This document shows, one piece after another, positions 804-22,523 of a stretch of DNA of 64,000 nucleotides. The translations under genes were made by a program, and so were the position numbers. The DNA is from Escherichia phage UE-S1. The first letter of the stretch is position 1. Each line of letters starts with the position of its first letter. The stretch lies in the sequence record ON568341.1, one strand, 5' to 3'. The notes beneath the pieces were generated by a model. That model ran no database searches. It saw nothing but the letters and a program-made list of their open reading frames with translations, and was not told where the DNA came from.

Positions 804-825
804 TAACTAAAAGGATTTATTTAAA

Positions 826-1806: not shown

Positions 1807-1807
1807 T

Positions 1808-2203: not shown

Positions 2204-2208
2204 AATAT

Positions 2209-2589
2209 ATGTTTCCTGTACCATCACATAACAGTACTGAATATCAAAATGATGTACTTTCCAAAGTTAGGGAAGTACATGAATCAGATTCAGAAATAAC
2301 AGACCGTATGCTTCTGATGTCAATTTTTGAAAATTTCAGAACTGGCGGTGGTTTACGTCTTAGCAAGTTTGGGTATGGAATTTGTAAAGAAAATAATCTT
2401 TATGAATTTACAAAAATCCCCTTGCAAAGAGAATTTAAAAGTTCTATAATGTTTACATCACTTGACAGAATATGTACTTCACCTTATTATGTTGAAGGTC
2501 AGTACATATATCTGACAGATGCAATGATAATAACTGAATTAACATTGTGTTGTGATGATTTTAAACAATTATTTTCTATTCATATGTAA
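2209..2589 (+). CDS. Hypothetical protein
   Basis: 126-aa ORF tightly packed after the previous gene; GGAGA ribosome-binding site. Confidence 0.5.
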   Translation: MFPVPSHNSTEYQNDVLSKVREVHESDSEITDRMLLMSIFENFRTGGGLRLSKFGYGICKENNLYEFTKIPLQREFKSSIMFTSLDRICTSPYYVEGQYIYLTDAMIITELTLCCDDFKQLFSIHM

Positions 2590-2601
2590 GAAAAATAAAT
2601 G

Positions 2602-2629
2602 TTGACAAGATAGAATGATGTGATATAAT
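2602..2629 (+). promoter_or_regulatory. Sigma70-type promoter: TTGACA, 16-nt spacer, TGaTATAAT (extended -10)
   Basis: Exact -35 TTGACA at 2602-2607 and -10 TATAAT at 2624-2629 inside the motif GATGTGATATAAT. Confidence 0.6.
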
Positions 2630-2694
2630 AAGCATCAGACATAAAGTTTTCAAGCGGCACAAGATGTGAGTTTGAAAAAAATAAAAAAAAGTGA

Positions 2695-2722
2695 TTGACA
2701 AGTTGAAACGATGTGATATAAT
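2695..2722 (+). promoter_or_regulatory. Second tandem sigma70-type promoter: TTGACA, 16-nt spacer, TGaTATAAT
   Basis: TTGACA at 2695-2700, TATAAT at 2717-2722; same GATGTGATATAAT motif about 93 bp downstream of the first copy. Confidence 0.6.
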
Positions 2723-2892
2723 GTTCACATCAAGGCAGCAAAGAGATTTACCTTTTTAAACACACGGATGATTCATGAAGTAATAAAGGAACTGATAAGT
2801 TAAATTATTTTAACACAGTTCCTTTACTTTTGCCCACGGATTGGCTATAATAGAAACTTAAACGATTTTATCCAACAAAAGGAAATATATAC

Positions 2893-4218: not shown

Positions 4219-4238
4219 TTAACAAAGAGTGGTTGACA

Positions 4239-4268
4239 AGAAGGATACGATATAGTATCCTTCTTTTA
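4239..4268 (+). terminator. Intergenic stem-loop with U-tract between the ATPase and VWA genes (partial terminator or attenuator)
   Basis: AGAAGGATAC-gatata-GTATCCTTCT followed by TTTAT; a TTGACA lies just 5' but the -10 spacing is poor. Confidence 0.45.
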
Positions 4269-4292
4269 TCTTAACTAAACGAGGAAATATAC

Positions 4293-5717: not shown

Positions 5718-5729
5718 GTACTAAATAAT

Positions 5730-5759
5730 GAGAACGGAAATTTTCCGTTCTCTTCTTTT
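5730..5759 (+). terminator. Rho-independent terminator
   Basis: GAGAACGG-aaatttt-CCGTTCTC hairpin followed by a T-tract. Confidence 0.6.
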
Positions 5760-5765
5760 ATAAGT

Positions 5766-5793
5766 GAGACAACTCACAAAAATATGATATAAT
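5766..5793 (+). promoter_or_regulatory. Sigma70-like promoter: GAGACA, 16-nt spacer, TGaTATAAT
   Basis: GTGAGACAACT -35 element and extended -10 TGATATAAT upstream of the 5829-8883 gene block. Confidence 0.45.
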
Positions 5794-5828
5794 AGTTATT
5801 GTACCAATATACATGGAGAGTATTAAAA

Positions 5829-6074
5829 ATGGAACAAGAAAATAATCAAATTCAACTAACCCTTCTAGACCTAATCAATGCAGCAAAAATCATGGAAGCT
5901 GCTGTTGCCCGAAATACATTTAAAGTTGAAGAACTCGTGGATGTTTCCCCAGTTGTCGCCAAATTTGTTTCTTTTGCAAATGAAGCACTTGAAGATATTA
6001 AAGCTCAAGAAGACGCTGCTAAAGAAGAATCTGAATCACAAGATATTAAAGCTCAAGAAGATAAAGGAGAATAA
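5829..6074 (+). CDS. Small hypothetical protein (start moved to the ATG with a GGAGAG ribosome-binding site)
   Basis: ATG at 5829 preceded by GGAGAG; the track ORF starts at 5799 without a good ribosome-binding site. Confidence 0.5.
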   Translation: MEQENNQIQLTLLDLINAAKIMEAAVARNTFKVEELVDVSPVVAKFVSFANEALEDIKAQEDAAKEESESQDIKAQEDKGE

Positions 6075-6076
6075 TT

Positions 6077-6733
6077 ATGGCAGCTATTCGTCATGTTGGT
6101 GTAATGCGTAATACAGGTTCACGTGTTTTTGTTGTTTGGCGTTCACTACCAGATGATCCTGACCACTGCCTTATTGTTTATCGTGATTCCTTACCAGAAG
6201 CATATGTTCATGCAGTAACTGATATTGTGATGGGTCATGGTCAATCAAACATTGATTTGTGGGAAGTAATGCATAAAATTGGTTACCTGGATGGTCGTAA
6301 AATGCTAGATGTACTACACAATATGCAACATTTACGTCGAGTTCGCACTTGTGATATTGATATGCATACTGGTGGTAATAATAAAATTTCTCTTGATGTT
6401 CTAAACAAAGCATTAGATGAAAATCAAGCGAAAGTACAAGAAGATGGTAAAGTAAAAGACTTTAACCCATTTAACCCACAAGAAGTAGACACAAAAGTTG
6501 AAGAAGCAACTATTGTTGAACAACTTATTTCTGACGCTAAAAAATATGAAAAACTTGCTCAAGAACACTATGAACGTGCATACAATTTAGAGCCAAGTTT
6601 GCGTCCACAAACACAAGTTGTTGAACAACCAAAAGATAGTAAAACAATTTATCTAGAAATTCCTGAAGGTATTTCACAGACTAAAGCTATTGAGAAAGTA
6701 AAACAACTATTCGCAGAACGCAAAGCAAAATAA
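6077..6733 (+). CDS. Hypothetical protein
   Basis: 218-aa ORF with AAAGGAGA ribosome-binding site, immediately after the previous stop; no motif recognised. Confidence 0.55.
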   Translation: MAAIRHVGVMRNTGSRVFVVWRSLPDDPDHCLIVYRDSLPEAYVHAVTDIVMGHGQSNIDLWEVMHKIGYLDGRKMLDVLHNMQHLRRVRTCDIDMHTGGNNKISLDVLNKALDENQAKVQEDGKVKDFNPFNPQEVDTKVEEATIVEQLISDAKKYEKLAQEHYERAYNLEPSLRPQTQVVEQPKDSKTIYLEIPEGISQTKAIEKVKQLFAERKAK

Positions 6734-6736
6734 AAT

Positions 6737-7330
6737 ATGAAAAAGAATGAATTAGATGAAGCAATTAAAGGTTTATCTAATGTATGTTTTAGTGGCGGGG
6801 CAGCAGGTGCTGACCGCCTTTTTTCAATCTATGCAAAAAATAATGGATTTGAAGTTATTAATTTTTCATTCAAAGGTCATGTGCATAGTGTAGATGAAAG
6901 CACCATATTAGAAATACCATCCAATATTTTATCTGATATTTCTATATTAAATCAACTAAACATTGCATGTTATTCGTTGCAGCGAAAAGTACCAAAGCCT
7001 GGTTCATATGTTTACAACTTACTTGCAAGGAATAGTTATCAGATACTTAATACAGAAAGAATATATTGTATTGCAAATATTACATCGCCAACTAAGGTAA
7101 GTGGTGGTACTGCATGGGCAGTACAGATGTACATTGATTCAGTTGAAAATCCAGAAATTTATTGTTATGATATGAATTCACGTTCTGTGTTTTACTTCGA
7201 TACAGAACTGAAAGAGTTCAAACAATCATTCGTGGTTCCACCACCACATGGTAACTGGACTGGTATTGGTTCACGCAATGCAACAGAAAAACATATGGAA
7301 CATTTTATTACATTTTTCAAGGAAGAATAA
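6737..7330 (+). CDS. Rossmann-like protein with GGAxGxD motif (SLOG / LOG-DprA-like nucleotide-binding fold); function unknown
   Basis: N-terminal VCFSGGAAGADRLF resembles the glycine-rich loop of SLOG-family proteins; stop overlaps the thyA start (TAATG). Confidence 0.45.
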   Translation: MKKNELDEAIKGLSNVCFSGGAAGADRLFSIYAKNNGFEVINFSFKGHVHSVDESTILEIPSNILSDISILNQLNIACYSLQRKVPKPGSYVYNLLARNSYQILNTERIYCIANITSPTKVSGGTAWAVQMYIDSVENPEIYCYDMNSRSVFYFDTELKEFKQSFVVPPPHGNWTGIGSRNATEKHMEHFITFFKEE

Positions 7331-8883
7331 TGAAGCAACTACAAGAACTATATCAAAAAATTCTAGATGAAGGCGTAGAAAGCGTTGACCGTACTGGCGT
7401 TGGCACAATCAAACTTATCGGTCAACAAATGCGTTTCGACCTTAAAGATGGTTTCCCAGCAGTGACGACAAAACGTCTAGCTTGGAAATCAATGACTTCA
7501 GAATTACTATGGTTTATTGAAGGCTCCCATGATGAACGTCGCCTTTGTGAAATTTTACATGGAACTCGTGATACAGAAAAGAAAACTATTTGGACAGATA
7601 ATTGTTTAGATCGTGCAAAAAACGATCCCAATCGATTTAATGGGGAAACGGTCGGTAATATGTATGGCATGAATTGGCGTTATCAACCATCTGAACCACA
7701 TAGCTATCAATATATTGAGAGGAAAACATATATTGATGATTATGTTGAAAATCATATTTGTCCAGAAATTACTGATACATTTAATGGAGTTAAAATTCAC
7801 AAATCTGCCAAATGTGGGGATTATGAAGTTATTGGTAAACATCATAATAATATAGTAATTCGTTTCATTAACACCGGTTCATATAAAATTGTACCAAGAA
7901 CTGCGAAAAATATTAAAGATTTTTTCCAACCATCAATTGAAGGGATTGGATATTTGGGTGGTGTAATTCCTGATACATTAACTGCAAAAAAATTATATCA
8001 AATTTGGAAAGATATGATTATTAGAGTGTATAACCCTAGAAAAAATCATTTATCATATGAAAATATAACTGTATGCAAACGTTGGCATAATTTTATGAAT
8101 TTTTACAATGATGCTTTTTCATTATGGGGATTTCAAGAATTTGTTGACAGTGGGTATTCTCATCAACTTGATAAAGATTATTACGGTTCAAACATTTATT
8201 CACCTGATACTTGTATTTTTATATCAGCATCATTAAATAAAACATTAAATGGTGGTGGACATGGGTTTAAAATTTATCTTTATAAAGGTAATGTATTTTA
8301 TTCTAGAACCGATTTACAAGAATCACGTGGTTTAACAAGAAAGGCCAATTTACCAGATGATGTAACAATATTAGAAGATAATGAAACACACGTAGTAAGA
8401 CCAAAAATATACATTGATCAACTACAGCGTTGTATTGATTTAATAAAGAACGATCCAGATTCAAGACGAATTGTTATTACATCATGGAATTCTAGAGATA
8501 TTGAAAATGCAGCATTAGGTATGTGTCACCCATTAGTACAATGGTTTGTTATTAATGGTAAGTTGTCATGTTCATTTTATATGCGTAGTTCTGATAGCTT
8601 CTTAGGCTTACCATTCAACATAGCATCATATGCACTACTTACCCACATGATAGCACAAATATGTTCTCTAGAGGTTGGAGAATTGATTTATACAGGTGGT
8701 GATTGTCACATTTATAAAAACCACGTTGAACAAGTAAAAGAACAACTACAGCGAAAACCACGTGAATTACCTGAATTGTGGCTTGATCCTACCATTACTA
8801 ATATTGAAGATTTCACAATGGATTCTTTCAAATTAGTAAATTACAACCCAATGCCAACAATTAAAGCACCGATGGCTGTATAA
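7330..8883 (+). CDS. thyA: Thymidylate synthase (ThyA family) with a ~228-aa in-frame insertion
   Basis: N-terminal TS motifs (DRTGVGT, FPAVTTKR) and C-terminal TS core (NDPDSRRIVITSWN, catalytic CHPLVQWFV, LGLPFNIASYALL, GGDCHIY); 517 aa rather than ~265-285. Confidence 0.85.
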   Translation: MKQLQELYQKILDEGVESVDRTGVGTIKLIGQQMRFDLKDGFPAVTTKRLAWKSMTSELLWFIEGSHDERRLCEILHGTRDTEKKTIWTDNCLDRAKNDPNRFNGETVGNMYGMNWRYQPSEPHSYQYIERKTYIDDYVENHICPEITDTFNGVKIHKSAKCGDYEVIGKHHNNIVIRFINTGSYKIVPRTAKNIKDFFQPSIEGIGYLGGVIPDTLTAKKLYQIWKDMIIRVYNPRKNHLSYENITVCKRWHNFMNFYNDAFSLWGFQEFVDSGYSHQLDKDYYGSNIYSPDTCIFISASLNKTLNGGGHGFKIYLYKGNVFYSRTDLQESRGLTRKANLPDDVTILEDNETHVVRPKIYIDQLQRCIDLIKNDPDSRRIVITSWNSRDIENAALGMCHPLVQWFVINGKLSCSFYMRSSDSFLGLPFNIASYALLTHMIAQICSLEVGELIYTGGDCHIYKNHVEQVKEQLQRKPRELPELWLDPTITNIEDFTMDSFKLVNYNPMPTIKAPMAV

Positions 8884-8886
8884 ACG

Positions 8887-8917
8887 AAAAGGGAGAACAT
8901 CAGTTCTCCCTTTTTTA
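8887..8917. terminator. Bidirectional rho-independent terminator between convergent genes
   Basis: A-tract, GGGAGAAC-atcag-TTCTCCC hairpin, T-tract. Confidence 0.7.
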
Positions 8918-11188
8918 TTATCTAATTGTTACCAACGTTCTTCCGTCGAAACGTACATCAGGAGTTGAAGGTATACTGAACACTACGTTAGTGCCGTTAA
9001 ACGTCACGCTATCGACCTCAACACGAGTATAGACACCTGGACTAACCTGTTCCTGTATCTCTGCTGTGACGATGTTTGAGGCTGTTACAGTAAGGGTGTA
9101 GTAGTTACCACTTAATACCCAAGATGAAATGGTAAATGCATCGGTTCTTACTGAACCTGAACCAATTGGAACCCATTGACCTTGAACTTTTTGCATTGAA
9201 GTACGCTCGGTATTGGAGTATGCAATCATACCATCAACACCAACAGAGTTATCAATAGTAGCTAGTACTGGTAATTGAATACCATATCTATTGAAACGTG
9301 TTCTAATAATTCCATTATCATAGATACTTACATCAGCATAATTCCCCATTGAAAGTTTCAAATCTGAATCAACTAATTGCATTGTACTTTGGTTAGTAGG
9401 GCTTTCTAAAGTAATTATTCCATTTGGTAATAAGCTTAAGTTTTTAAATTTATTCGAATTACCATTAAAATTTGTATTAGCGTTGAAAGTACTAGTTCCA
9501 TTAACTACTATTGTGTTTTCTGCGGCATCACCTAATATTGTATTTCGTTGAACAATCAAGTTACCATTAGCAGTAATATTAGTCGCTGTAGTATCACCAT
9601 TTAATTTTGTATTAGCGTTGAAAGTACTAGTAGCATTAACTACCAATGTGTTTGTTGCGTTGTCACCTAATATAGTATCACTTTGAACATTCAAATTACC
9701 ACTAGCAGTAATATTAGTCGCTGTGGTATCGCCATTTAATTTACTTGTACCATCAACTACGATATTACTATTAAATTTCGTATTAGATTTAAAAGTACTA
9801 GTAGCATTAACTACCAATGTGTTTGCTGCGGTGTCACCTAATATTGTATTGCTTTGAACATTCAAATTACCACTAGCAGTAATATTACTAGCTGAAGTAT
9901 CACCAATTAATCTACTTGTACCATCAACTACGATATTACCATGAAAATCGCTTTCACCGTTTTTAAATTCCACTTGTACCGAATACATAGAACTAAATGA
10001 AATTATATTACTACTTGCACTTATACCAACATTAGTATTAGTTGGGTTATCGAAGTGTAATATTGGAGTTAATGCTGGTGTTGTTGTTGTTTGATAGAGC
10101 GTTAATGATGAGTTGTTAATTCGCACACGTTCTGTTCCGGCAGTACTAAATCCAATAGCATCATCAGCAGGATGAAAAATACCAGTATTAGTATCAGACC
10201 ATTTTTCAGGATCATTACCAGGATTACTTGTTGGGTCGAATGGTTTATTATTAAATGCTATCGCTGGTGCGGAAGCACTCCCATATACAACACCAAAACG
10301 ACCAGACCCTATTGTACCATCATCATACATTGAATCGCCTGTTCTACGTAAACATTCAATTACAACATTATCTATGGAAGTTTGAACTGTACCAGCATTA
10401 GTTCTGAATTGACGATTATTTGCAATCATAATAGTGTTATCATATAACACAGAAGCTGCTGAAATACTTGTTCTTGATTGACGAAGGCGTATGTTTTTAT
10501 CTTCAGTAATAATAATCCAATCACCATCAGATAGTGCTGTTTGATTCATTGGCACACCGGAAGCAAACGGCTTAGTTAAATCATCATCAGTTGCTAAATT
10601 AACAAGTCCACTATGCCCAGTACTAGGGATGGAAGTTGAAATAATTCTTGCAAAAGCGTTTGTTACGAGCTTTGCACCAGATATATTTGGATTAGAATCA
10701 ACATAATATAAAATTTCAACCCAATTCCCCTGTCCAGTTGGGTTAGTTGGAGTAAATGTTACTGGGCTGGTTTTTGGTTTATTCGCTTCAAAATGTGCTT
10801 GGGCGGCATCCATAATACCACGCACAACATAATAATCACCACTAAGTGATGATGAGGGTGCAGGTAGTGGGCTTTGGGCTAACGGTGGGTCAATATCATC
10901 TGGAATCGGATTATATGTACCAACAAACTGTAAACCACTAGTTACTGAATCTGGTAATTGAGATGTAAGAAGTTTACCATTTGCATCTAAGTTAGCGAAA
11001 CGCCTGTATGCCATTGAACCATCTTCAAAATCCAGAACACCCTCGAACGATTTCCATGCTTTATTGTATCTAATCATCCCTGATCTTATTACATCAGCGG
11101 TTTCTTTTGATGGTGCTTTTGGTAATTCTAAAAAAGATTTACTATCAATAATTACACCACCATCACCTCTAATTCGATTTATACTCAT
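8918..11188 (-). CDS. Tail fibre protein, repeat-rich (distal fibre-like)
   Basis: 756 aa; several tandem ~45-aa repeats (NITASGNLNVQS-TILGD-A-NTLVVNATSTF); Thr/Asn/Ser/Gly-rich. Confidence 0.6.
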   Translation of the reverse strand: MSINRIRGDGGVIIDSKSFLELPKAPSKETADVIRSGMIRYNKAWKSFEGVLDFEDGSMAYRRFANLDANGKLLTSQLPDSVTSGLQFVGTYNPIPDDIDPPLAQSPLPAPSSSLSGDYYVVRGIMDAAQAHFEANKPKTSPVTFTPTNPTGQGNWVEILYYVDSNPNISGAKLVTNAFARIISTSIPSTGHSGLVNLATDDDLTKPFASGVPMNQTALSDGDWIIITEDKNIRLRQSRTSISAASVLYDNTIMIANNRQFRTNAGTVQTSIDNVVIECLRRTGDSMYDDGTIGSGRFGVVYGSASAPAIAFNNKPFDPTSNPGNDPEKWSDTNTGIFHPADDAIGFSTAGTERVRINNSSLTLYQTTTTPALTPILHFDNPTNTNVGISASSNIISFSSMYSVQVEFKNGESDFHGNIVVDGTSRLIGDTSASNITASGNLNVQSNTILGDTAANTLVVNATSTFKSNTKFNSNIVVDGTSKLNGDTTATNITASGNLNVQSDTILGDNATNTLVVNATSTFNANTKLNGDTTATNITANGNLIVQRNTILGDAAENTIVVNGTSTFNANTNFNGNSNKFKNLSLLPNGIITLESPTNQSTMQLVDSDLKLSMGNYADVSIYDNGIIRTRFNRYGIQLPVLATIDNSVGVDGMIAYSNTERTSMQKVQGQWVPIGSGSVRTDAFTISSWVLSGNYYTLTVTASNIVTAEIQEQVSPGVYTRVEVDSVTFNGTNVVFSIPSTPDVRFDGRTLVTIR

Positions 11189-11229
11189 TTAAATATTTCC
11201 TCAGAATAGATTATATATGATGTATTTAT

Positions 11230-11267
11230 TTTAGATAAAAGAAAAGGCCAAGTATAGACTTGGCCTT
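11230..11267 (-). terminator. Rho-independent terminator downstream of the 11273-12052 gene
   Basis: AAGGCCAAGT-ata-GACTTGGCCTT hairpin followed on the minus strand by a T-rich tract. Confidence 0.6.
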
Positions 11268-11272
11268 GAAAA

Positions 11273-12052
11273 TTATTTAGTACGTTCAGGTATATCAATA
11301 CCTTCATATACCCAACTCGCAGCTTGTTGTGCTTTATAAATTGCGTTCGGGTCGGAATCATCAACTGCATCAATTGCTTCACATTGTTTATCACAATCAG
11401 AAAATAGTTTTTCAACCATTGCTAATGATTCAGTATATAGCTGTGTCATTTCTTCTGCTGTTAGTTTTACTATAGCATCATCAAGAATAATAGTAACTTC
11501 ATGAGCACCAGACACAACTTGTGTATAATAATTAAGGAGCATTTGGCGACCAGCAAGATCTGTATTATAACGATGTTCTTTGAATACATAACCAGCATTA
11601 ATTCGATTAGTACGTTCTGATAAAGTTCGTTCTTTCAAATCTTTTTTCACATCAGAAATTGGTACATCGACATAATTGTATGTTTTAAGAACAGTCAATG
11701 CTTTATATTCATCAGTTGCATCTTCTAAAAATTCAACTACTGGTTGTTTTTCATCTTTTAATCGAACATATTCCAATGGTTGATCATTCTTATTTACATT
11801 ACCTACATTTTTATATTCTAACCACCAAAAACCTTCTTCTTTTCTTACCTCATCATTTGGTTCTACTGGAGAACCATCATAACTGGAAATACCATACAAA
11901 GTTCTAATATCGCTATAAAGATAGCGATAGGTCTGTGAATCATCAGGAATTGCACCTGGGCGTTCTTTAAGACCTTTAACACCGATTGGGTTTGAGATGA
12001 TACTACCCAATTCATAGTTTTCCTTTGAATTACCTTTCACATATGTGAACAT
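11273..12052 (-). CDS. Hypothetical protein between two fibre genes (possible fibre hinge or assembly component)
   Basis: 259-aa ORF; assignment is by position only. Confidence 0.45.
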   Translation of the reverse strand: MFTYVKGNSKENYELGSIISNPIGVKGLKERPGAIPDDSQTYRYLYSDIRTLYGISSYDGSPVEPNDEVRKEEGFWWLEYKNVGNVNKNDQPLEYVRLKDEKQPVVEFLEDATDEYKALTVLKTYNYVDVPISDVKKDLKERTLSERTNRINAGYVFKEHRYNTDLAGRQMLLNYYTQVVSGAHEVTIILDDAIVKLTAEEMTQLYTESLAMVEKLFSDCDKQCEAIDAVDDSDPNAIYKAQQAASWVYEGIDIPERTK

Positions 12053-12117
12053 ATAACTACCTCACTTGTTACGATGGTGTCACCCAAGTAAGGTGACACC
12101 TTTTATTATAATTATTA

Positions 12118-15100
12118 TTAAGCAGTACGTTGAGCAATAAACATATCTGCTACTGAACTTACACCATCATAAATTACTTGATAGATAGTTACAGAGTTTG
12201 CAGTTTTGTTAAGTGTTCCATCAACTACAGCATATGTACCATCGGTAGTAAAGTTTCTATTACCTGTTGTATCTTGTTTAACATAAATGTATACTGAAGA
12301 TGCTTTACCACCACCAATTAGACCAGTGATAGGTGCTAGTGTTGTATCTTGATCAAGTGTGATGAAGTATACGTTGCTAGTTCCGTCAGGTGTCCAAGTT
12401 CCAGAAGGTGCAATAACAGAAGAAGTTACTTGATTTGGTATAACATCATATTTTTTGGTAGTTACTTTTGTTGTAGTGAAGTCTGCGTTGGTTGTAGATA
12501 AATGACCTGTGACAGTTACACCCTTGTCAAATACTGCATTTTCTTTGAAAGAAGATGTTGCATTAACAGTTAATGTATCAGAATCAGAATCACCTAACAC
12601 AACACTACCATTTGCTGTCATTAAACCAGTAACAGTTAGTGTACCGCCGATTGTAGCTTCACCAGTTACAGATGCACTAGCAAGTGTAGCTGCACCAGAT
12701 GTTGTAATGGTGGTAACAGTAGCGTCTTCAAGTGTAATACTTGATGCAGTTAATTTTCCATCAACCGTTAGGCTACCAGTAACATTCGCACCAGCCGACA
12801 TAGTTACTGCTCCACCAAATGAACCAGTGGTCATGACTTCAAGGGTATTTCCTTTAAGTAATTTAGTTGCAGTTATATTTTCACCAGCAGTAATACTAGT
12901 ACCAGCAGCAACACCATTGGTTGCAGTTAATGATTTAACAGCCACGTCAGAGTTTGATTGGTTTAGTGTTGCGTTTAGAATGCCAGTTACAGTGAAGTCA
13001 CCGTTGTTAACTACGTTACCGTTGATTGTTAAGTTATTGTTTTTAGAACCAACATCACCGATGGTTGCTGATTTAGAAATCAATTCTGCACCAGATGTAA
13101 TGTTACCTGCGGCACTAATAGTGTTAGCTGCCTTAACTGCATAAGGTTCAATAGTTTGACCACTAACATCGATATCAGCATTAATACCACCATCAACACG
13201 TAAAGAACCAGCAATGTAAGTATTAGGGAAAATTTGAACAGTTTCTGAGTGTTCACCAACCTGTGTACCAATAATAACAGATGAACCAGTTTTTATTGAA
13301 CCTTCAGATGTTAGTGCTCCCACTGTTGCTGTGCCAGTAACGTTTAGTTTGCCACCAACTTTAGCGTTATTAGTTACTGTTAACGCTATATCATCACCAT
13401 TAAGAGTCATTGATGATGCAGATGCGTTTCCAGTAACATCGAGTGTACCACCAATAGTTGCATTGCCATCAGAATGTAGAGTTTGTGCAACAGAAAGACT
13501 GTTTGCAACCACATCAGTACTGGTCAAATCCAATGCACCCGGTGTTAATGTACCAGTAATGTTAACATTATTACCAAATGTTGCTGCCCCAGTAACATCT
13601 AGGGTAGAGCTAAATGTACCAGAAGTTGCAGAGATTGAACCAGATTCTAGTGAACCAACAGTAGTTTTTCCAGTTACACCTAGTGTACCACCAACTGTTC
13701 CATTTGTTGTAACTTCTAATGTTCCAGTACTTAGATCTTTCGCTGTAACTTTGTCAGATGCGTTAATAGTTGTTGTTGTAACACCACCACTTAGGGTGCT
13801 TGCACCAGTAACACTGAGTGTTTTAGCTGCACTAACGCTGTTTACGTTAAGATCTGCACCAGATAGGTCTAAACCACCTTCAGGAATAAATTTACCCTTA
13901 ACGGTTAGTTGTTGAACAGAACTGTCACCAGTAACATCCAGTGTAGAAGCAGTTAGACCACCATTCAGGCTTGCTTCCCCAGTAACATCTAGGGTAGTTG
14001 TTACAGTCGCACTGTTAAGAGTGGAGTTACCGGAAATATTAGCACTTGGTGCAGTGATTGAACCTTTATCAACTTGTACATCACCAGAAACAACTTTAAT
14101 ACCACCAGCATCAACTGTTAGTTTTTCGGCAGTGTTCAAAGTACTTGAAATTGTTGTTGCACCAGTTAAGGTTGTGGTTCCTGCAACACTCATGTTTCCA
14201 GAGATAGATGGATTACCTGTAATGTTACCAGTAGTTAGAACCAAGTCAGTACCTACAGTAGTGGAACCAGTACTTTCTAATGTTACACCGACAATATTTG
14301 CAGATTTAAGGTCAATGGAGCCATCAACAGTCAAGTTACCATGTACTGTTGCATCACCGAGTGAATTTAATGATTTCACAGAAACATCAGTTTTACTAAG
14401 GTCAATTACACCAGCAGTAAGTGTTCCAGATACTGCCAAATCACCAGTAATTGCTGTATTTTTAGTAATAGATACAGTTTCTGATGCTGACGTAATTGAG
14501 CCAACAGTAAGTGCACCACCAATGGTTGCATTGTTAGTTACAGTTAACGCTGTTTCTTCACCAGATAGTGTTAAAGAAATACCATTCATTTCACCAGTAA
14601 TATTTGCAGATGCCGCAGAAATATCGCCAGCAACTACCGCATTTGTTGCGTTTAGAGTTGTTGTAGTAATTTCAGTACTTTTTACTTTAGGAAGTGCGTT
14701 GATACCATCTTTACTATTAACTGTAATAATACCAGAACTTGTTAGCGATTTAACAGAAACATCTGCACCACTTAAGTTAACTGTTCCAGAAACAACTAGA
14801 TCGCCACCAATATTAGCACCTTCTGTTGTAGTGATTGATTTTGCATTAACTTCAGTTTGGCTCAAATCAATTGTACCAGGTGATACAGTTCCAGAAACAG
14901 TAAGATTACCAGTAATGGTGGTATCATTAGAAATAGATACACCATCATCATTACTAATTGTTGGGGTTTCAATAGTAACAGCTTTAACTTTACCTGAAGA
15001 AGTCATATCAGCAACAGTTGATGTACCAGTAACCTTTAGATTAGTAATATTTGCAGTAGTTGAACCAAGTGTAGTAATAGTACCATCAGTACTTTCTAGT

Positions 15101-17601
15101 TTAGGAAGAACACTAGCAATAGAAGATTCTTTACTAACAATTGCACCAGTGCTGGTTAGTGATTTTGCAGTTACATCAGCATTAGTAAGGTCAACTGTTC
15201 CATTAACGGTTAGATCTCCCCCAACTGTTGCACCAGCAGTAGTAGTAATTGAATTAGCATTAACATCTGCTTTAGTTAGATCAATTGAACCTGGAATGAT
15301 TGCACCAGAGACAGTTAGATCACCAGTTACTTTTGTATTATTAGCAATTGTAATTCCATGTTCATTGGAAATATTAGGAGTTACTAATGAAGGAGTAGTA
15401 GTTACGCCAGATACATTTAATGTTGTACCAACTAATACACTTGATAGATTAGATTGTCCAGTTACGTGAAGTTCATCTGCATTAACAGTTGTGATAGTTG
15501 CAGTTGTACTTTTAAGTACTGGGAGTACGTTTTCGGACACACTATCATTGCTTTTAATAACACCAGAAGTAGTAAGTGATTTAACATTAAGTTCGGCTTC
15601 TGATAAATCAAAAGAACCTTTAACTACGAGGTCACCACCTACTGTTGCACCAGCAGTAGTAGTAATAGATTTTGCATTAAGTTCGGCTGCACTTAAATCT
15701 AGTGAACCAACAGTTAAGCTACCAGTGATATCAACATTTTCAGTAAAGGTAGTCTCCCCACTAATCGTTGGGGCAGTTAAACTCGTCGCAGTGATATTAG
15801 TACCTTTGATTGTTTCACCACTTAATGTACCACTAGCAGTAATAGTCGGTGCGGTAACTTCTGTAGATGCACTAATTGTTGGTGCGGAAACCGAAGTTGT
15901 ACCAGTAATAACACCAGAACTTACTGATCCAGCAGATAATGCACCAGAAAGAGTTGCAGTTGTACCAGTAATATCACCAGTGACAGTTAGTGCTCCACCA
16001 ACAGTAGTATCACCTGTACTTTCCAAAGTTGCACCTTTGACATGTTCGGCTGCCACAACTGATTTTGGTGTTAAATCTTGTCCACTAACGTCAACGGTTA
16101 AACCAGTTACTTTACCAGTGAAATCAACATCATTAAGAATTGCCTTACCACCAACTTGTAGGAATGGTGTACTTGGGTCTTGTGTTTCGTTACCTGTAAT
16201 TGTTAGATAATCTAATTTGTTTAGACCATTACCAGTAATACCATATGTTGATAGTGATGCATTGCCAAATGTTGCAGTTTTAAGAACTTTCAATGTAGCT
16301 GGAGAAACCAACTCAGATTGAACTTCATTCGGTAAAATAACAGTTGGTCGTTGTTCTGGTGTAGTATATGCAAAACCGAGTTTAACCGCTGGGTCTTGAC
16401 TATTTTTACCTAAACTGATAGATTTGAAAGTTGCAGTACCGTTTAAACCAGTAATATTAGAACCTAGTGTAACACCACCCACCAATGAAGTAGTTCCTGA
16501 TACATTCAATGTGGTTGCATTAATATCATCCAACTGGAATTCGCCACCAAGAAGACCAGAAACATTAATGTTATTAAAATTAGCTGTGCCAGTACTTTCA
16601 ATATTTGGGATAGTTGCAGTACCAGTAACTTCAAAATCAGCAACTTTAGTTTTACCTTTTTTTACTTCTAGAAGTGGTGTGTCTGGTGATTGAGTATCGT
16701 TACCAGAAACAGTTAGATAATCTAATTTGTTTAGACCATTACCAGTAATGCCATAGGTTGGCAATGATGCATTACCAAATGTTGCAGATGTCAAAACAGT
16801 CAATTTTGCTGGTGACATTAGTTCAGATTGAATTTCGTTTTGTAGAATTACAGTAGGACGCTTATCTGGGGCACTGTAAGGAAAGCTTAGTCTAAAGGTT
16901 TGTGATTCAGAGTTAGAGCCAATACGGATGTCTTTAAATGTAGCAGTACTATTAATACCTGTTACATTAGCACCAAAAGTTACAGCACCTTTTTGGTTAG
17001 ATGCACCAGTGACGTTCAATGTTTCAGCATTCAAATCAGAAAGATTAAACTCACCGCCTAGTGTACCATTAATGTTTACATCGTTGAATTCAGCAGTACC
17101 AGTGCTTGTAATATCAGTTGTAGACATAGTTGTGATTTCTGCGGAATTAGCAGTAATTTTATCAAAAGCAGCAGTTGTACCAACATCAGCAGTTAAGTTA
17201 CCTTTAAGTGTTGTTACTTCATCAACTTCTAAGCTTTTTACTTTAGTTTCTTGTAGTGCTGTTGACCCAGCAGTTTGTGTAAAATCACCACCAACTGACA
17301 CAACACCGTTAAATGTAGCATTTGCATTGATTGTTGCTGTATCAGAACCACCATCTTCACTACCGATAGTAGTGTTACCTTTAACATCAAGACCACCACT
17401 TAGTGTTGCTTTTCCAGCAACATCTAATGTAGATGTAATATTGGCAGTTTCTGTTTCAATGGCAGTAAAAGATGCATTTGCAAAAGATATACTACCATTT
17501 ACAGTTAGGTTATTCTTGAATACAGCATTCCCTTTGACTAAAAGATCCTTACCAACCGTGCCAGCACCAGTAATATCTAAGTCAGTTTTTATTGAGTACA
17601 T
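12118..17601 (-). CDS. Large tail fibre protein (proximal long-fibre-like) with internal tandem domain duplication
   Basis: 1827 aa; Thr/Gly/Ser/Asn/Val-rich; repeated DLSKADVNAKSITTTAGATVGGDL-type modules; ~500-bp direct repeat in the DNA. Confidence 0.65.
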   Translation of the reverse strand: MYSIKTDLDITGAGTVGKDLLVKGNAVFKNNLTVNGSISFANASFTAIETETANITSTLDVAGKATLSGGLDVKGNTTIGSEDGGSDTATINANATFNGVVSVGGDFTQTAGSTALQETKVKSLEVDEVTTLKGNLTADVGTTAAFDKITANSAEITTMSTTDITSTGTAEFNDVNINGTLGGEFNLSDLNAETLNVTGASNQKGAVTFGANVTGINSTATFKDIRIGSNSESQTFRLSFPYSAPDKRPTVILQNEIQSELMSPAKLTVLTSATFGNASLPTYGITGNGLNKLDYLTVSGNDTQSPDTPLLEVKKGKTKVADFEVTGTATIPNIESTGTANFNNINVSGLLGGEFQLDDINATTLNVSGTTSLVGGVTLGSNITGLNGTATFKSISLGKNSQDPAVKLGFAYTTPEQRPTVILPNEVQSELVSPATLKVLKTATFGNASLSTYGITGNGLNKLDYLTITGNETQDPSTPFLQVGGKAILNDVDFTGKVTGLTVDVSGQDLTPKSVVAAEHVKGATLESTGDTTVGGALTVTGDITGTTATLSGALSAGSVSSGVITGTTSVSAPTISASTEVTAPTITASGTLSGETIKGTNITATSLTAPTISGETTFTENVDITGSLTVGSLDLSAAELNAKSITTTAGATVGGDLVVKGSFDLSEAELNVKSLTTSGVIKSNDSVSENVLPVLKSTTATITTVNADELHVTGQSNLSSVLVGTTLNVSGVTTTPSLVTPNISNEHGITIANNTKVTGDLTVSGAIIPGSIDLTKADVNANSITTTAGATVGGDLTVNGTVDLTNADVTAKSLTSTGAIVSKESSIASVLPKLESTDGTITTLGSTTANITNLKVTGTSTVADMTSSGKVKAVTIETPTISNDDGVSISNDTTITGNLTVSGTVSPGTIDLSQTEVNAKSITTTEGANIGGDLVVSGTVNLSGADVSVKSLTSSGIITVNSKDGINALPKVKSTEITTTTLNATNAVVAGDISAASANITGEMNGISLTLSGEETALTVTNNATIGGALTVGSITSASETVSITKNTAITGDLAVSGTLTAGVIDLSKTDVSVKSLNSLGDATVHGNLTVDGSIDLKSANIVGVTLESTGSTTVGTDLVLTTGNITGNPSISGNMSVAGTTTLTGATTISSTLNTAEKLTVDAGGIKVVSGDVQVDKGSITAPSANISGNSTLNSATVTTTLDVTGEASLNGGLTASTLDVTGDSSVQQLTVKGKFIPEGGLDLSGADLNVNSVSAAKTLSVTGASTLSGGVTTTTINASDKVTAKDLSTGTLEVTTNGTVGGTLGVTGKTTVGSLESGSISATSGTFSSTLDVTGAATFGNNVNITGTLTPGALDLTSTDVVANSLSVAQTLHSDGNATIGGTLDVTGNASASSMTLNGDDIALTVTNNAKVGGKLNVTGTATVGALTSEGSIKTGSSVIIGTQVGEHSETVQIFPNTYIAGSLRVDGGINADIDVSGQTIEPYAVKAANTISAAGNITSGAELISKSATIGDVGSKNNNLTINGNVVNNGDFTVTGILNATLNQSNSDVAVKSLTATNGVAAGTSITAGENITATKLLKGNTLEVMTTGSFGGAVTMSAGANVTGSLTVDGKLTASSITLEDATVTTITTSGAATLASASVTGEATIGGTLTVTGLMTANGSVVLGDSDSDTLTVNATSSFKENAVFDKGVTVTGHLSTTNADFTTTKVTTKKYDVIPNQVTSSVIAPSGTWTPDGTSNVYFITLDQDTTLAPITGLIGGGKASSVYIYVKQDTTGNRNFTTDGTYAVVDGTLNKTANSVTIYQVIYDGVSSVADMFIAQRTA
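16150..17150 (-). repeat. Tandem direct duplication (~504 bp unit, two copies) inside the 1827-aa fibre gene
   Basis: GTTAGATAATCTAATTTGTTTAGACCATTACCAGTAAT... occurs at ~16205 and ~16709 with long flanking similarity; protein module ITGNGLNKLDYLT... repeated. Confidence 0.7.
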
Positions 17602-17684
17602 TTATACCCTCCATGATAACCTTGTTAATATGTATATATTTAGTTTTATTCTTCTGTTAACTAATAATTTGTCAAAATAAAAAA

Positions 17685-17715
17685 CCAGACTTATTGATAA
17701 CAAGTCTGGATTCAT
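17685..17715 (-). terminator. Rho-independent terminator
   Basis: CCAGACTT-attgataac-AAGTCTGG hairpin followed on the minus strand by a T-tract. Confidence 0.5.
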
Positions 17716-17717
17716 TT

Positions 17718-18617
17718 TTACTTACCAGAGATAACAATCTTCCCACTGAATGTAACATCAGAAGTAAAGATTACGTCACCAGTATTGCTAATTTGTGTGC
17801 CAGTTACTACCAATTCAAATGGTGATGTCGAAACACTACCAGGTGTCTTATTTGCATAAATCGAAACATACAAATTTTCTGGTGATTGTTTGTGTTCAGA
17901 TGCTGGAATTGTGATGGTGAACTCATCTTTATTAGAAATCCAATCATCTTGGTTTATCAATTTACTATAAGGTACTGTCATTGTTGTTGCTCCTATAATG
18001 TTTACTATAACATTTATATAATCCGTAATTTTGCCAATTGCATCTATTGTAATATCACCAGCACCGTTCACTACTACAGATGTTTGAAATACTGAATCCA
18101 ATGTCCTACTACCAGGAGAATCACCATGTAGTTGTATCATGATATCAGGCCCACGCCCATGTACAGATGCTGGAATGGTGTATGTATAATGGTCGGTAGT
18201 ATCTGGTACTAATGTAAATGCAGATACTGGTACAGTTTCAGTTGTTACATATGAACTATCAGTTTCATGTGAACTACCTTTGAATGATTTCCAAATACCA
18301 AGGTCTTTAATATAAATTTGAAGAACATTAGTTTCATCAACTAAAAAATACACATCACCATCTGACCCAATAGATTCATCCGGGGCACTGGTCCCACGCA
18401 AAATACCAGAACTACCAGTGCCACTATGTGCGTTTAGATATCCTAACGTAACTAGATGTGTGTTAGCGGTCGGGTCACCTGCTGAAATTGGAAGAAGTTT
18501 TGTTCCTGAGTAGTTTTGTATTTGCACGACACTACCATTTGTGGTAATCTGTGCACCATTCTTCCCAAGAATGAAGGATTTCTTCATTGTTCCTTCTAAA
18601 TTAGAAAAAACTGCCAT
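17718..18617 (-). CDS. Tail fibre or tailspike protein sharing an N-terminal module with the next gene
   Basis: N-terminus MAVFSNLEGTMKKSFILGKNGA... parallels MAVFSNFEGTMKPKMILGKNGA... of the 18634-20775 protein. Confidence 0.55.
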   Translation of the reverse strand: MAVFSNLEGTMKKSFILGKNGAQITTNGSVVQIQNYSGTKLLPISAGDPTANTHLVTLGYLNAHSGTGSSGILRGTSAPDESIGSDGDVYFLVDETNVLQIYIKDLGIWKSFKGSSHETDSSYVTTETVPVSAFTLVPDTTDHYTYTIPASVHGRGPDIMIQLHGDSPGSRTLDSVFQTSVVVNGAGDITIDAIGKITDYINVIVNIIGATTMTVPYSKLINQDDWISNKDEFTITIPASEHKQSPENLYVSIYANKTPGSVSTSPFELVVTGTQISNTGDVIFTSDVTFSGKIVISGK

Positions 18618-18633
18618 TTTAATTTAATCTCCT

Positions 18634-20775
18634 TTATGGTAGGGTTATATACGTTACTGGCTGGGCAGCTTTTAATGATGCACCAGCGGCAGTTGCTGTT
18701 ATGATGGGATCTGCAATATCAATTCTATATACATTATTAACAACATATACTGCACGAGTTATATACGTTTTCAAATCATCACCATTTTCCCCAGCACCAG
18801 ATATAATGATCTCAGTACCAGCCGCTTTTGCATATTGGTTATCACCCCATGACACACCCAATGCTTCTATATACGTTTGTCCTACTGTCGTTTGTCTAAT
18901 TGTGTCATATTTTCCAAAAAATGAACCACCCACTGTTACAATATATTTTCCACCAGATTTTTTATGTATAATCGTCCCTTCTGGGAAGTATCTTCCTCCA
19001 GGAAAAGTATCATATGGAATATAATATTGCTCAACTACAGGTATTAGTACTGGACCACGGTGACCAGTACCGTCAATTGCAGTTGTTACTTTGAAATTAT
19101 TAGATGATTGATCGATTCTATCTACGTACATTTTAGAAAAACTATATTTTGAAACATTACAATCATCTTGAACAACACAGTTAGTCCAATTAGTATAAGT
19201 ATATTTAGAGCGAGTATACATACCCCCACCTTCACCTTCAGTGGAAAGGTGTTGTCCTATGACATCTAATTCTTTTGTTCTGATATCACTAAATTTAGAT
19301 GAAGATGGTAGACCACGCCAAAGAATTTTAGAACAAGTAATATTACTTAATTCTGTACTATTCAACCAATTATCCGATCCAGAAGTATAAACGATTACGG
19401 AAGACTCTGGTATATAGAGATTGGATATTTTAAAGTTTCTAGGTGGACCAGCAAATCGACCACCAGTTACACCCCAGTTAATAGATACCATACGGTTTGT
19501 GACTGTAGGATCATTAAGTAAATGTCCGGTTAAACCATCAATTACAAACTCTTTTGAACCATAAGTTATTACACCAGCAGTTGTTAACCCAGTACCAACG
19601 GAAATTAAAGATGATGGGTACACCTCATTATCAAGTATTTTGAAATCCATTCCCAATTCGACATGGATACATTGTCTAACATTATAAAGTCTATTATTCT
19701 TAATAACAAAGTTTCTAACATATTGTGTATCAGGGGCATCCAAATCATAAGGACCAGACCCAGCAACACCAATACCAATACCCCAGTTTGAAAGCGGGAT
19801 TGGTGCATCAGAACCATCAACATTTTCAATTATATTACCTTCAATTACAAAACCATCAGGATAATGTGAGTTAATAACGTTCAATTCAATTGCATCCCCG
19901 TAGATATCATGAATGTGGTTGTATGAATAACGACCAACCTTCATTTTCTCACCAGTTCCTTGTTGGAGAACGCCATATTTACATTTAGTCATTTCATTAA
20001 AGCAAAAATCTATTGTGCCAGATTGGGTCATACCTTGCATTAAGAACGCAGCAGTACTGGTAATGTTAATAAATTTATTAAAATAAAATTTACCATCCCC
20101 GCCAAAGAATTTCAAATAACAGCCAGTAAGTGTGGTGAATTGAATTTGTGAATTAATAACGGATATCATAGTTCCACCATTACCCGTAATAGTGCCACCA
20201 AACCAAGTTACATCTTCCAAATATACTGCTTTTTTGATACGATAATTACCACCTGCTTGAATTTGTATTTTATTTTCTTTTGCATAAGTTGCACACAAAT
20301 TTACAGCTTCAGTGTCATCGGTTTCCCCATCACCTTTCGCACCAAATTCTTCTGGTGTTATATAGAACTGTGCTTGTTGAACTGTACCGCCAGTAACAAG
20401 GCCAATGAAATCACCACCATTTTTACTTGATAGTGCTTTTTTATTAATGTAGAGTGATTTAATCCAAGTACCATTAGTTTTTACGAAGATATCAACAATA
20501 CCATCTTCATCAATTTGAAAATAAGTATTATTATTTTTTCCAATATCATCTGACGGTGATTGAACACCAAATAATGCATTTGGATTATCTTCAAGGTATC
20601 TAATATTAACTGCTGAATCTTGGTCTGATGGTGTTCCTACTTTTAGTGGTAGAAACTTTTCACCTAGATAATCTTTTATCGATACGGAATCATTGACGAA
20701 ATTTATCGAAGCACCATTTTTACCCAATATCATTTTTGGTTTCATGGTCCCTTCAAAATTAGAAAATACTGCCAT
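18634..20775 (-). CDS. Tailspike-like protein with pectate-lyase-type beta-helix signature (possible depolymerase); start moved to the internal ATG
   Basis: EEFGAKGDGETDDTEAVN motif; ATG at 20775 preceded by AAGGGGGGTG; the track N-terminal extension would overlap the upstream gene. Confidence 0.6.
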   Translation of the reverse strand: MAVFSNFEGTMKPKMILGKNGASINFVNDSVSIKDYLGEKFLPLKVGTPSDQDSAVNIRYLEDNPNALFGVQSPSDDIGKNNNTYFQIDEDGIVDIFVKTNGTWIKSLYINKKALSSKNGGDFIGLVTGGTVQQAQFYITPEEFGAKGDGETDDTEAVNLCATYAKENKIQIQAGGNYRIKKAVYLEDVTWFGGTITGNGGTMISVINSQIQFTTLTGCYLKFFGGDGKFYFNKFINITSTAAFLMQGMTQSGTIDFCFNEMTKCKYGVLQQGTGEKMKVGRYSYNHIHDIYGDAIELNVINSHYPDGFVIEGNIIENVDGSDAPIPLSNWGIGIGVAGSGPYDLDAPDTQYVRNFVIKNNRLYNVRQCIHVELGMDFKILDNEVYPSSLISVGTGLTTAGVITYGSKEFVIDGLTGHLLNDPTVTNRMVSINWGVTGGRFAGPPRNFKISNLYIPESSVIVYTSGSDNWLNSTELSNITCSKILWRGLPSSSKFSDIRTKELDVIGQHLSTEGEGGGMYTRSKYTYTNWTNCVVQDDCNVSKYSFSKMYVDRIDQSSNNFKVTTAIDGTGHRGPVLIPVVEQYYIPYDTFPGGRYFPEGTIIHKKSGGKYIVTVGGSFFGKYDTIRQTTVGQTYIEALGVSWGDNQYAKAAGTEIIISGAGENGDDLKTYITRAVYVVNNVYRIDIADPIITATAAGASLKAAQPVTYITLP

Positions 20776-20788
20776 TATGACACCCCCC

Positions 20789-21916
20789 TTAAATATTATC
20801 TTGAATAGGTTGGACCGGAGCTTGCCATGAAAGAGTACAAATAATTTCCATTTTACCATAAGGACTATTATTAACTGAATCATTGAATACACATGAAATA
20901 ATTTCATCTACATCTGAAACTTCATGATTTGTTTCATTAACAATAAAACGCATCTGGTGATTAATATCAAAGTAGGATGTTGGTGCAATGACAGTACCAC
21001 CAATATTTTCGTTTGCTTCACCACCGAAACGAACAAACATATCGGTTACTGGAATGGAGTAAGGTTGAAGAATATTTACATCAATATTTGAAACCACATA
21101 ACCAGCAGGACAAGTTCCTATAACCAATAGTGCGTTTGTCCATGAATGGTCAATGATATTTCTTATAGAAATTGTATCTTTACCTGGTGCACCCGGTTCA
21201 CCTTGCTTACCTTGAATACCTTGTGGACCTTCTTTACCACGGAATAAAATACCACTACTCCATTCTTTTGATGGTGGGGTGGTAGTTGTTACTTCATCTA
21301 CATAATAAAGTTTACCATCAGTGTTGTTATAGAAACAATAATCAACTGGGAGGTTTTCTATGCTTGGAAATTGATCACCACTACCGTCAATATGGAAACG
21401 ACCACGTGGACCTTGCTCGCCACGGAAAGGAATACCATCACTCCATGTTGCTGTTACTTTTTGATAAAAATATAATTTACCATCTTGTGTATTGTAAAAT
21501 GTATAGTTATCAAAAAGACCAGAACTTGGAAAATTAGTTCCCGCACTATCGATATGAAAAGGCTTACCAGCTTCACCAGTATCACCTTTACCAAATTCTA
21601 CACTAATCCATGTACTGGTTTGTTCTTGTGCATCATTTGATTTAAAATACAAAGTACTTGTGTTATTTGCCAAGCTAAGGTAGCACCAACCAAGTGGTTC
21701 ACCAACTTTGAATTTATCAGACGGAACTTCAAAACCAATCTCGTTTGGATAAAAGTTCTTACCGTTTTCACCATTTTGTCCTACAACAAGACCTAAATCT
21801 TGAATTGTATTATCGGTATAGGTTACAATTAAATGACCAGCAGCATTAATAACTAGACTTTTGATGCCGGAGTTATTACATGAACCACTGGACCCATTGT
21901 TAAATGAAATTGTCAT
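20789..21916 (-). CDS. Collagen-like repeat-containing tail fibre protein
   Basis: Gly-X-Y triplet runs (GQNGENGKN; GEQGPRGR; GKEGPQGIQGKQGEPGAPGKD). Confidence 0.6.
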   Translation of the reverse strand: MTISFNNGSSGSCNNSGIKSLVINAAGHLIVTYTDNTIQDLGLVVGQNGENGKNFYPNEIGFEVPSDKFKVGEPLGWCYLSLANNTSTLYFKSNDAQEQTSTWISVEFGKGDTGEAGKPFHIDSAGTNFPSSGLFDNYTFYNTQDGKLYFYQKVTATWSDGIPFRGEQGPRGRFHIDGSGDQFPSIENLPVDYCFYNNTDGKLYYVDEVTTTTPPSKEWSSGILFRGKEGPQGIQGKQGEPGAPGKDTISIRNIIDHSWTNALLVIGTCPAGYVVSNIDVNILQPYSIPVTDMFVRFGGEANENIGGTVIAPTSYFDINHQMRFIVNETNHEVSDVDEIISCVFNDSVNNSPYGKMEIICTLSWQAPVQPIQDNI

Positions 21917-22025
21917 ATTATTTCCCTTTTATGAGTTAATGTCATATACCAATATTTATCAGTACAAAATACATTTCGTCGCCATTAATAAATAAATGAA
22001 AGTTCACTACTAAAAGGGCTTAACA

Positions 22026-22523
22026 ATGGCATTAAGATCAAAAAACTTTCTTTTTAAAAGAAAAACAAAAGATGGTTCATGGCAAGATTTTCCTGAATCC
22101 GATAGTTGGTATCCAGCTAATTTGGATTATCTTTGGAATGAACAAACATTACCACTGGCAAGTGGTGGCTACTATGGTAGCACTACTGGGTTGCATACCA
22201 TTTCATTTACACTACGTAATTTTATTGGTAGAATTTATGTATTAGCAACATTAGCTAGTAATCCGACTGACGATGATTGGTTCCCAATTAAATTCACTGA
22301 AAGTTGTAAATATTATCTTGAATTTACTGATATGGTTATTTTAAATCCAAACGGCGGTGATTTAATTAGACAACAAGGAACTACCGGAACATTTGCAGAA
22401 ACAGTGACAGGCAACTTTACATATATTAAAGTTGGTATTGATCGTGATTATATTAGTAAGTACCCGTCTGATGTACAAAAAAGTTTAGCGGGTAAGTTAG
22501 AACAAATTTTAATTAACTACTAA
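22026..22523 (+). CDS. Hypothetical protein
   Basis: 165-aa ORF; first of three co-oriented plus-strand genes. Confidence 0.45.
   Translation: MALRSKNFLFKRKTKDGSWQDFPESDSWYPANLDYLWNEQTLPLASGGYYGSTTGLHTISFTLRNFIGRIYVLATLASNPTDDDWFPIKFTESCKYYLEFTDMVILNPNGGDLIRQQGTTGTFAETVTGNFTYIKVGIDRDYISKYPSDVQKSLAGKLEQILINY

Follow-up and report, generated by a model that had tools for sequence, protein, structure and literature searches.

A shared N-terminal module joins a conserved virion protein and a putative accessory colanidase tailspike beside the long-fibre gene of Escherichia phage UE-S1

The window analyzed here is a stretch of 64,000 nucleotides from Escherichia phage UE-S1 (sequence record ON568341.1). 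Positions 17718-21916 are occupied by three open reading frames (ORFs) on the minus strand, which we label genes A, B, and C. Gene C (20789..21916, minus strand) encodes 375 amino acids (aa) and matches phrog_13565 "tail protein" with an expect value (E) of 1e-218. Gene B (18634..20775, minus strand) encodes a 713-aa homologue of colanidase tailspikes that matches phrog_6117 "colanic acid degradation" (E 3e-258) and the Pfam family PF27800 (WcaM). Gene A (17718..18617, minus strand) encodes a conserved virion structural protein of 299 aa (phrog_10468, E 7e-87) that is 100% identical to UES1_521 and has the orthologues 121Q gp572, CBB_227, and GAP32_221. Downstream of A lies gene D (12118..17601, minus strand), which encodes a long tail-fibre protein of 1827 aa (121Q gp571, CBB_226, phAPEC6 gp256).

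Positions 17000-22500 of the window share 92.7% identity with Escherichia phage ph0011 and about 87% with 121Q, PBECO4, and phAPEC6, which are all jumbo myoviruses of the genus Asteriusvirus. The 121Q annotation names the corresponding genes gp574 "tail protein" (C), gp573 "colanic acid degradation" (B), gp572 "virion structural protein" (A), and gp571 "tail fiber protein" (D). The UE-S1 locus is best explained as the fibre-attachment part of a RaK2-like jumbo coliphage. Genes A, B, and C are not discussed in the published description of UE-S1.

The start of B at 20907 in the ORF list is 44 codons too early. The conserved MAVFSNFEG start and the upstream Shine-Dalgarno sequence AAGGGGGG place the true start at the ATG at 20775. 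Gene A starts at Met1 (ATG at 18617), as indicated by the conserved MAVFSN.EGTM sequence and the Shine-Dalgarno site AAGGAG upstream of it. One public gene call begins A at Met11 (289 aa; 11188-12057 in the compared locus L013), an annotation that can now be corrected.

The N-termini of A and B are homologous over ∼105 aa (BLASTP E 2e-22), with no likeness beyond this point. By tblastn the two are 40% identical across 109 aa, and by MAFFT 43%; identical residues number 18 among the first 22 and 30 among the first 60 (50%), and homology is detectable to residue ∼105-110. The original prediction described these N-termini as near-identical over ∼60 aa. Pairwise alignment, the check it proposed, upholds a significant similarity but not near-identity. 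The same prediction saw a cassette of three proteins with a common module, a count that has to be reduced to two because C lacks the module in six-frame searches with hidden Markov models (HMMs) and in BLASTP, the latter detecting no similarity between A and C. No module beyond those of A and B was found in the window by HMMs over all six frames or by tblastn; a 14-residue tblastn match inside a 3331-aa ORF was at chance level and was rejected as a further copy. At the level of whole genomes, there are exactly two module copies in Asteriusvirus and at most two in related genomes.

Over their first 34 coding bases A and B differ only by synonymous or near-synonymous changes, after which DNA identity falls. 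This pattern indicates conservation at the protein level and not a recent DNA duplication. The module of B is 35-44% identical to every A module, whereas the A modules are ∼55-70% identical among themselves, so that the B module is an old paralogue or an import rather than a fresh copy of the resident A module.

The shared region comprises two parts. Sub-module 1 of A, the module proper, covers residues 1-64 (18426..18617, minus strand) in an alignment of 76 sequences. Sub-module 2, recognized by profile search, covers residues 65-113 (18279..18425, minus strand) and is a single repeat of ∼44 aa with the pattern G..GD.Y......iY.K..G.W. The N-terminal module of B (residues 1-104; 20464..20775, minus strand) likewise consists of sub-module 1 (about residues 1-63, HMM E 5e-27) and one ∼44-aa fibre repeat (about residues 64-104; 20464-20586, minus strand; HMM E 9e-15). 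Neither sub-module of A or B has a match in the copy of Pfam searched. In the 76-sequence alignment, 10 of the 14 invariant columns of the family fall within residues 1-21. Mean identity among A proteins falls from the N-terminal to the C-terminal end, from 68% (residues 1-64) through 60% (65-113) to 46% (120-299).

An AlphaFold2 model of A based on the same alignment had a mean predicted local distance difference test score (pLDDT) of 82.7 and a predicted template modeling score of 0.39, the low value of the latter being expected for a beads-on-a-string arrangement. A single-sequence prediction was unusable (pLDDT 34.5). In the model, residues 1-65 form three short strands and a helix (residues 58-64), with low confidence for the first 10 residues, and residues 70-113 form a small β unit. 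Residues 1-21, which hold 10 of the invariant columns, are the least confidently modeled part of the monomer and would fit a peptide that folds onto a partner. The C-terminal part of A (residues 118-299; 17718..18266, minus strand) is modeled as two tandem homologous β-sandwich domains (residues 118-212 and 213-299), for which no enzyme fold and no confident structural match was found.

The body of B (residues ∼105-713; 18634..20463, minus strand) is a β-helix colanidase of the phi92 gp150 type. The match to chain A of PDB 6E0V ("Bacteriophage Phi92 gp150") covers residues 101-712 (E 1e-235), and B is 57% identical over 617 residues to full-length phi92 gp150 (804 aa). The match begins at B residue ∼96-105 and gp150 residue ∼189-198, which sets the boundary between module and body at about residue 100-105. 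From there on, the alignment pairs B residues ∼105-712 with gp150 residues ∼198-801 over their full length (PDB 6E0V/6E0W). In contrast, the ∼190-aa N-terminus of gp150 is unrelated to the module that B has in common with A, and phi92 itself, a 148-kb myovirus, has a baseplate different from that of the jumbo phage. According to PMC13450770, which cites Xu et al. 2025, gp150 hydrolyses the β-1,4 glucose-fucose linkage of colanic acid. At 57% identity to gp150, hydrolysis of colanic acid by B is likely by analogy, not proved. The pectate-lyase-type β-helix originally recognized in B from a motif is borne out more strongly by this structural match than by the motif. The Pfam model PF12708 (Pect-lyase_RHGA_epim) remains below threshold on residues 143-250 (21.1 bits against a gathering cut-off of 27, E 3e-4), so membership at the fold level derives only from homology to 6E0V.

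Bodies of the B type occur in 255 phage records, behind unrelated N-termini and in both myoviruses and podoviruses. They include ∼34 genomes of the Asteriusvirus type (80-99% identity), phi92-like myoviruses (∼58%), GAP31/SSE121-like phages (∼37%), and podovirus "tailspike colanidases" (∼30%). The presence of this body behind other N-termini indicates that B combines, as a chimera, the N-terminal module of a jumbo phage with a colanidase body that is widely exchanged. Public records call B a "colanic acid biosynthesis protein," "MutT/NUDIX," or "hypothetical," and these function labels can also be corrected. In phage JP4 (PQ330092.1; locus coordinates 4656-5261) the B homologue is only 201 aa long, owing to an in-frame deletion of residues ∼152-659 whose ends meet in a GDGE / GAGENG microhomology; both the N-terminal module and the final 54 residues are retained. 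A 201-aa relative (P0001) is also present in an Escherichia coli assembly. JP4 was isolated and grown on E. coli O157:H7, and its viability with the body of B deleted shows that the enzyme body is dispensable on an O157:H7 host.

Gene C is a conserved protein with 60 full-length homologues at 42-98% identity, its orthologues being 121Q gp574, RaK2 gp062, CBB_228, and phAPEC6 gp253. It is laid out as three ∼50-aa units with short Gly-X-Y runs between them, followed by a C-terminal domain of ∼125 aa. A regular-expression scan of the translation found the longest run, of 7 triplets, at residues 227-247 (21176..21238, minus strand); the other runs, at residues 46-54, 111-119, and 166-174, have 3 triplets each. 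The collagen-like character first proposed for C thus holds for these short runs but not for a long uninterrupted region, and the Pfam Collagen model (PF01391) stays below its cut-off (17.3 bits against 27.2, E 0.0042). The repeats of C were considered as copies of sub-module 2 and rejected, as the similarity was not significant (hhalign E 0.34; iterated profile E 0.085). In our interpretation, C would form trimers and serve as a conserved structural protein whose connectors are short and collagen-like.

The gene order around the module is conserved. In GAP32, CBB, 7t3, EJP2, and XaC1, C, A, and the long-fibre gene D come in this order after three structural genes that are transcribed divergently and encode 165, 202, and 366 aa; D is the constant downstream neighbour of A, with synteny in GAP32, CBB, fEgEco12, 7t3, EJP2, and XaC1. 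Full-length A is conserved in ∼70 sequence clusters and C in ∼60, at 40-100% identity, and both are kept in phages of Escherichia, Salmonella, Cronobacter, Erwinia, Yersinia, and Xanthomonas. Such end-to-end conservation across host genera is the behavior of structural adaptors, not of swappable receptor binders, and for A a role as a long-fibre-linked adaptor is more probable than one in receptor binding. Gene B always lies between C and A and is found only in 121Q-type and fEgEco12-type coliphages and Salmonella SD phages. By this distribution, B is a lineage-specific insertion between the core genes C and A.

A terminator-like hairpin with an 11-bp stem followed by a T-run (17685..17709, minus strand) was found as a consensus match by pattern scan right after the stop codon of A. 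A second strong terminator-like hairpin follows D at 12076-12100; with convergent or adjacent units on its two sides, it could be bidirectional. The two pattern matches suggest C-B-A as a single unit, and the hairpin at 17685..17709 probably ends this putative transcription unit. A scan for σ70 promoters returned fewer matches than in shuffled sequence and was disregarded.

At the corresponding locus of RaK2 (Alcyoneusvirus), gp062 and gp061 are syntenic orthologues of C and of the N-terminal 115 aa of A, respectively. The 115-aa gp061 (9001-9348 of the RaK2 locus) is the module alone, with 59% identity to the N-terminal part of A. The next gene, gp060 (9513-11045), is the orthologue of a 756-aa structural protein encoded at 8918-11188 of the window on the minus strand. 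For this reason RaK2 ORF060w was rejected as a detached C-terminal part of A. At this locus RaK2 lacks B, the β-sandwich domains of A, D, and a DUF4376 protein. The joint loss of the C-terminal domains of A, D, and the DUF4376 protein suggests that the distal domains of A work with the long fibre. This block loss agrees with the published observation that RaK2 has no homologue of the CBB long-fibre gene.

Virion proteomes are available for relatives of UE-S1. Mass spectrometry of CBB virions detected CBB_226 (D), CBB_227 (A; 5 peptides, 32% coverage), and CBB_228 (C; 13 peptides). The original prediction depended on the module-bearing proteins being attached to the virion, and for A the presence of its orthologue in CBB virions bears this out. 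The phAPEC6 virions yielded gp253 (C; 14 peptides, 65.6% coverage) and gp256 (D). Analysis of RaK2 virions did not reveal gp062.

The distribution of the module was examined by an exhaustive HMMER search of the A/B N-terminal profile against 1.84 billion representative proteins, which matched 160 proteins; a word-indexed protein search with the two-sequence N-terminal alignment had returned 5 fragments only. The matches fall into two sets. In the first set, which includes proteins of 705, 780, 1218, 1344, and 1366 aa, positions 1-65/86 are matched, always from residue 1 of the target. The payloads are Beta_helix, Peptidase_S74 (an intramolecular chaperone of fibres), and BNR/sialidase-like domains with CBM5/12; proteins that start with sub-module 1 are P0029 (Beta_helix), P0030 (Peptidase_S74), P0040, P0057, and P0061 (BNR, CBM5/12). 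The genes for P0029 (705 aa) and P0030 (780 aa) lie five genes apart on a 119.9-kb contig of an uncultured phage (Logan SRR18476386; positions 1-10118 of the compared locus), and similarity between the two proteins is confined to the module and a second stretch at residues 94-148. The Pfam family PF27114 "Phage_tail_beta," precomputed on P0029 and P0030, was considered as the module; it was not equated with it, because it is unrecorded for A and B and because P0029 and P0030 also have region 94-148 in common. Among cultured phages the module occurs in 71 records, all of them RaK2-like jumbo phages. The modular re-use put forward in the original prediction is supported, since the bodies of A and B are unrelated and metagenomic proteins carry the module on other payloads.

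The second set is much larger. Only positions ∼65-112 are matched, with up to 14 copies per protein, and many members have collagen repeats, some being LPXTG-anchored bacterial surface proteins. In all, 633 copies of the ∼44-residue repeat (consensus GADGSSILSGTGAPANSLGKDGDFYIDTDNTNTGDIYVKANGAW) were counted across 150 representative proteins, often alternating with collagen triplets. When these 633 repeats were made into an iterated profile, it still matched A (E 2e-13) and B (E 7e-11). In one protein with the sub-module 2 repeat there is a weak match to Pfam CFSR (PF19079), a type of collagen-flanked repeat similarly found in phage fibres and bacterial surface proteins. A and B differ in that their repeats have no Pfam match.

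Taking these results together, we favor the reading, with a probability of roughly 60%, that B is a single accessory colanidase tailspike built on an old paralogue of the N-terminal module of A and located at the junction of baseplate and long fibre, rather than one of several depolymerases. It draws directly on the homologies, the domain boundaries, synteny, lineage distribution, and the presence of A, C, and D orthologues in virions. C and A are core virion proteins, conserved in all RaK2-like jumbo phages, with genes immediately upstream of that for the long fibre. B may have arisen when an old paralogue of the A module was joined to a horizontally circulating colanidase body of the phi92 gp150/WcaM type. 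We infer that the common module docks A and B, probably as trimers, on the same or paralogous sites at the baseplate/long-fibre junction, where A would be linked to D. B, presumably incorporated as an accessory part of the virion, would then cut through the colanic-acid slime of E. coli before the fibres reach their receptor.

Several observations weigh against this reading. Sub-module 2 is a generic internal fibre repeat that is not confined to N-termini. The Logan SRR18476386 contig has no other BLAST-detectable similarity to the window, including C and the neighbouring baseplate genes. Neither gp254 nor gp255 is in the phAPEC6 proteome table, and no virion proteome covering B was found in the literature. 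Finally, PBECO4, which has a B homologue, is reportedly unable to infect a colanic-acid-overproducing mutant unless the enzyme of another phage is added.

The shared region could also be a generic trimerization or shaft-initiating element, A and B being attached by other means or to other partners. Residues ∼65-110 belong to a repeat that recurs within long fibre and surface proteins containing collagen, the N-terminal region was not recognized as an adaptor fold of the CBA120 or T4 gp10 kind, and apart from sub-module 1 no gene similarity to the window was detected on the ∼120-kb contig. We nevertheless consider this rather unlikely. Sub-module 1 (residues 1-65) always stands at the extreme N-terminus, and most invariant positions fall in its first 21 residues. 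Moreover, the only part of A that RaK2 has kept, as a gene of its own, is precisely this region, which is hard to square with a function in shaft initiation only. The N-terminal position, the conservation gradient, and the RaK2 module-only gene suggest a docking role, in which the module would attach the protein to the tail or baseplate.

Another possibility is that B is not a virion component at all but a soluble late enzyme, released at lysis, that helps progeny to spread through slime or biofilm. The missing phAPEC6 peptides, the dispensability of the catalytic body in JP4, and the labeling of B in some records as an auxiliary or "biosynthesis" protein are in line with such a role. However, the phAPEC6 result is uninformative, because the A and B ORFs, although intact in that genome (MK817115.1), have no coding-sequence feature in the record and may be outside the search database. 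B is also flanked by two virion protein genes in an apparent single transcription unit that ends at the hairpin after A, its N-terminal module is that of a protein found in virions, and its closest characterized relatives are annotated as tailspikes. A soluble enzyme of this kind is improbable, and an accessory tailspike remains the preferred interpretation of B.

The proposal of the original prediction that A, B, and C are alternative receptor-binding proteins, with several depolymerases or host-range cassettes on a common anchor, is very improbable: the genes do adjoin the long-fibre gene, and the related jumbo phages RaK2 and phiKp24 do carry many depolymerase fibres, but C has no module, A has β-sandwiches in place of an enzyme fold, from Escherichia to Xanthomonas hosts A and C are not swapped but conserved over their whole length, and B alone has an enzyme body, a single β-helix.

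The sharing of a module by A and B is an ordinary further example of the known modularity of receptor-binding proteins. Conserved N-terminal scaffolds with exchangeable distal domains have been documented in CBA120, G7C, the RaK2 adsorption complex, phiKp24, and an atlas of Klebsiella receptor-binding proteins. In CBA120 (TSP1-4), G7C (gp63.1/gp66), phiKp24, and RaK2 (gp526-534), related N-terminal domains hold virion proteins with different distal domains, and depolymerase bodies in these branched systems are exchanged horizontally, as in B. A further likeness is to the KP32, K11, and KP34 systems with two receptor-binding proteins, where, according to PMC13352976, a highly conserved extreme N-terminal peptide stands on an otherwise divergent protein, as does MA[VI]FSN.EGTM here. 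That source describes the second receptor-binding protein's conserved docking peptide as binding a branching domain on the first. Those phages are podoviruses, whereas UE-S1 is of the jumbo myovirus type, in which no branching domain or partner was recognized.

Genes A, B, and C were already annotated in public records, and the new points fit the known pattern. No mention of the N-terminal homology of gp572 and gp573, of the RaK2 module-only gene, or of the insertion history of B was found in the literature. Mildly new are the absence of any model for residues ∼1-65 in the Pfam copy searched, the retention of the module in RaK2 as a stand-alone gene, and the loss there of the distal domains of A along with the long fibre. 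The junction at about residue 105 of B, where a colanidase body has been placed on a jumbo-phage module, provides information for payload swaps in phage engineering.

A broader, tentative, and in our view doubtful proposal is that residues 1-65 (MA[VI]FSN.EGTM...ILGK.G...) constitute a portable docking module outside the curated families, used by a core fibre-junction protein and by accessory enzymes in jumbo phages and in unrelated uncultured phages of at least 120 kb. If so, A and B would compete for or share sites, giving virions with a tunable colanidase load, and the 115-aa gp061 of RaK2 would be a "plug" remaining in the socket after the loss of the long fibre.

Two neighbouring genes of the window differ from their counterparts in related phages. 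The 756-aa structural protein at 8918-11188 (minus strand) is ∼100 aa longer than 121Q gp569 (654 aa). Its C-terminal end, compared via the RaK2 orthologue, gave only non-significant matches to the β-sandwich profile of A (E 0.04-0.16). A thymidylate synthase ORF at 7330-8883 (plus strand) encodes 517 aa, compared with 309 aa in 121Q and RaK2, and is matched in two pieces by the Pfam model Thymidylat_synt. Rfam detected no group I intron at this ORF. The extra sequence, ∼240 aa in frame at about residues 118-360, matches phage "HNH endonuclease" PHROGs (phrog_2081, E 4e-32) and looks like an in-frame homing-endonuclease-like or intein-like insertion.

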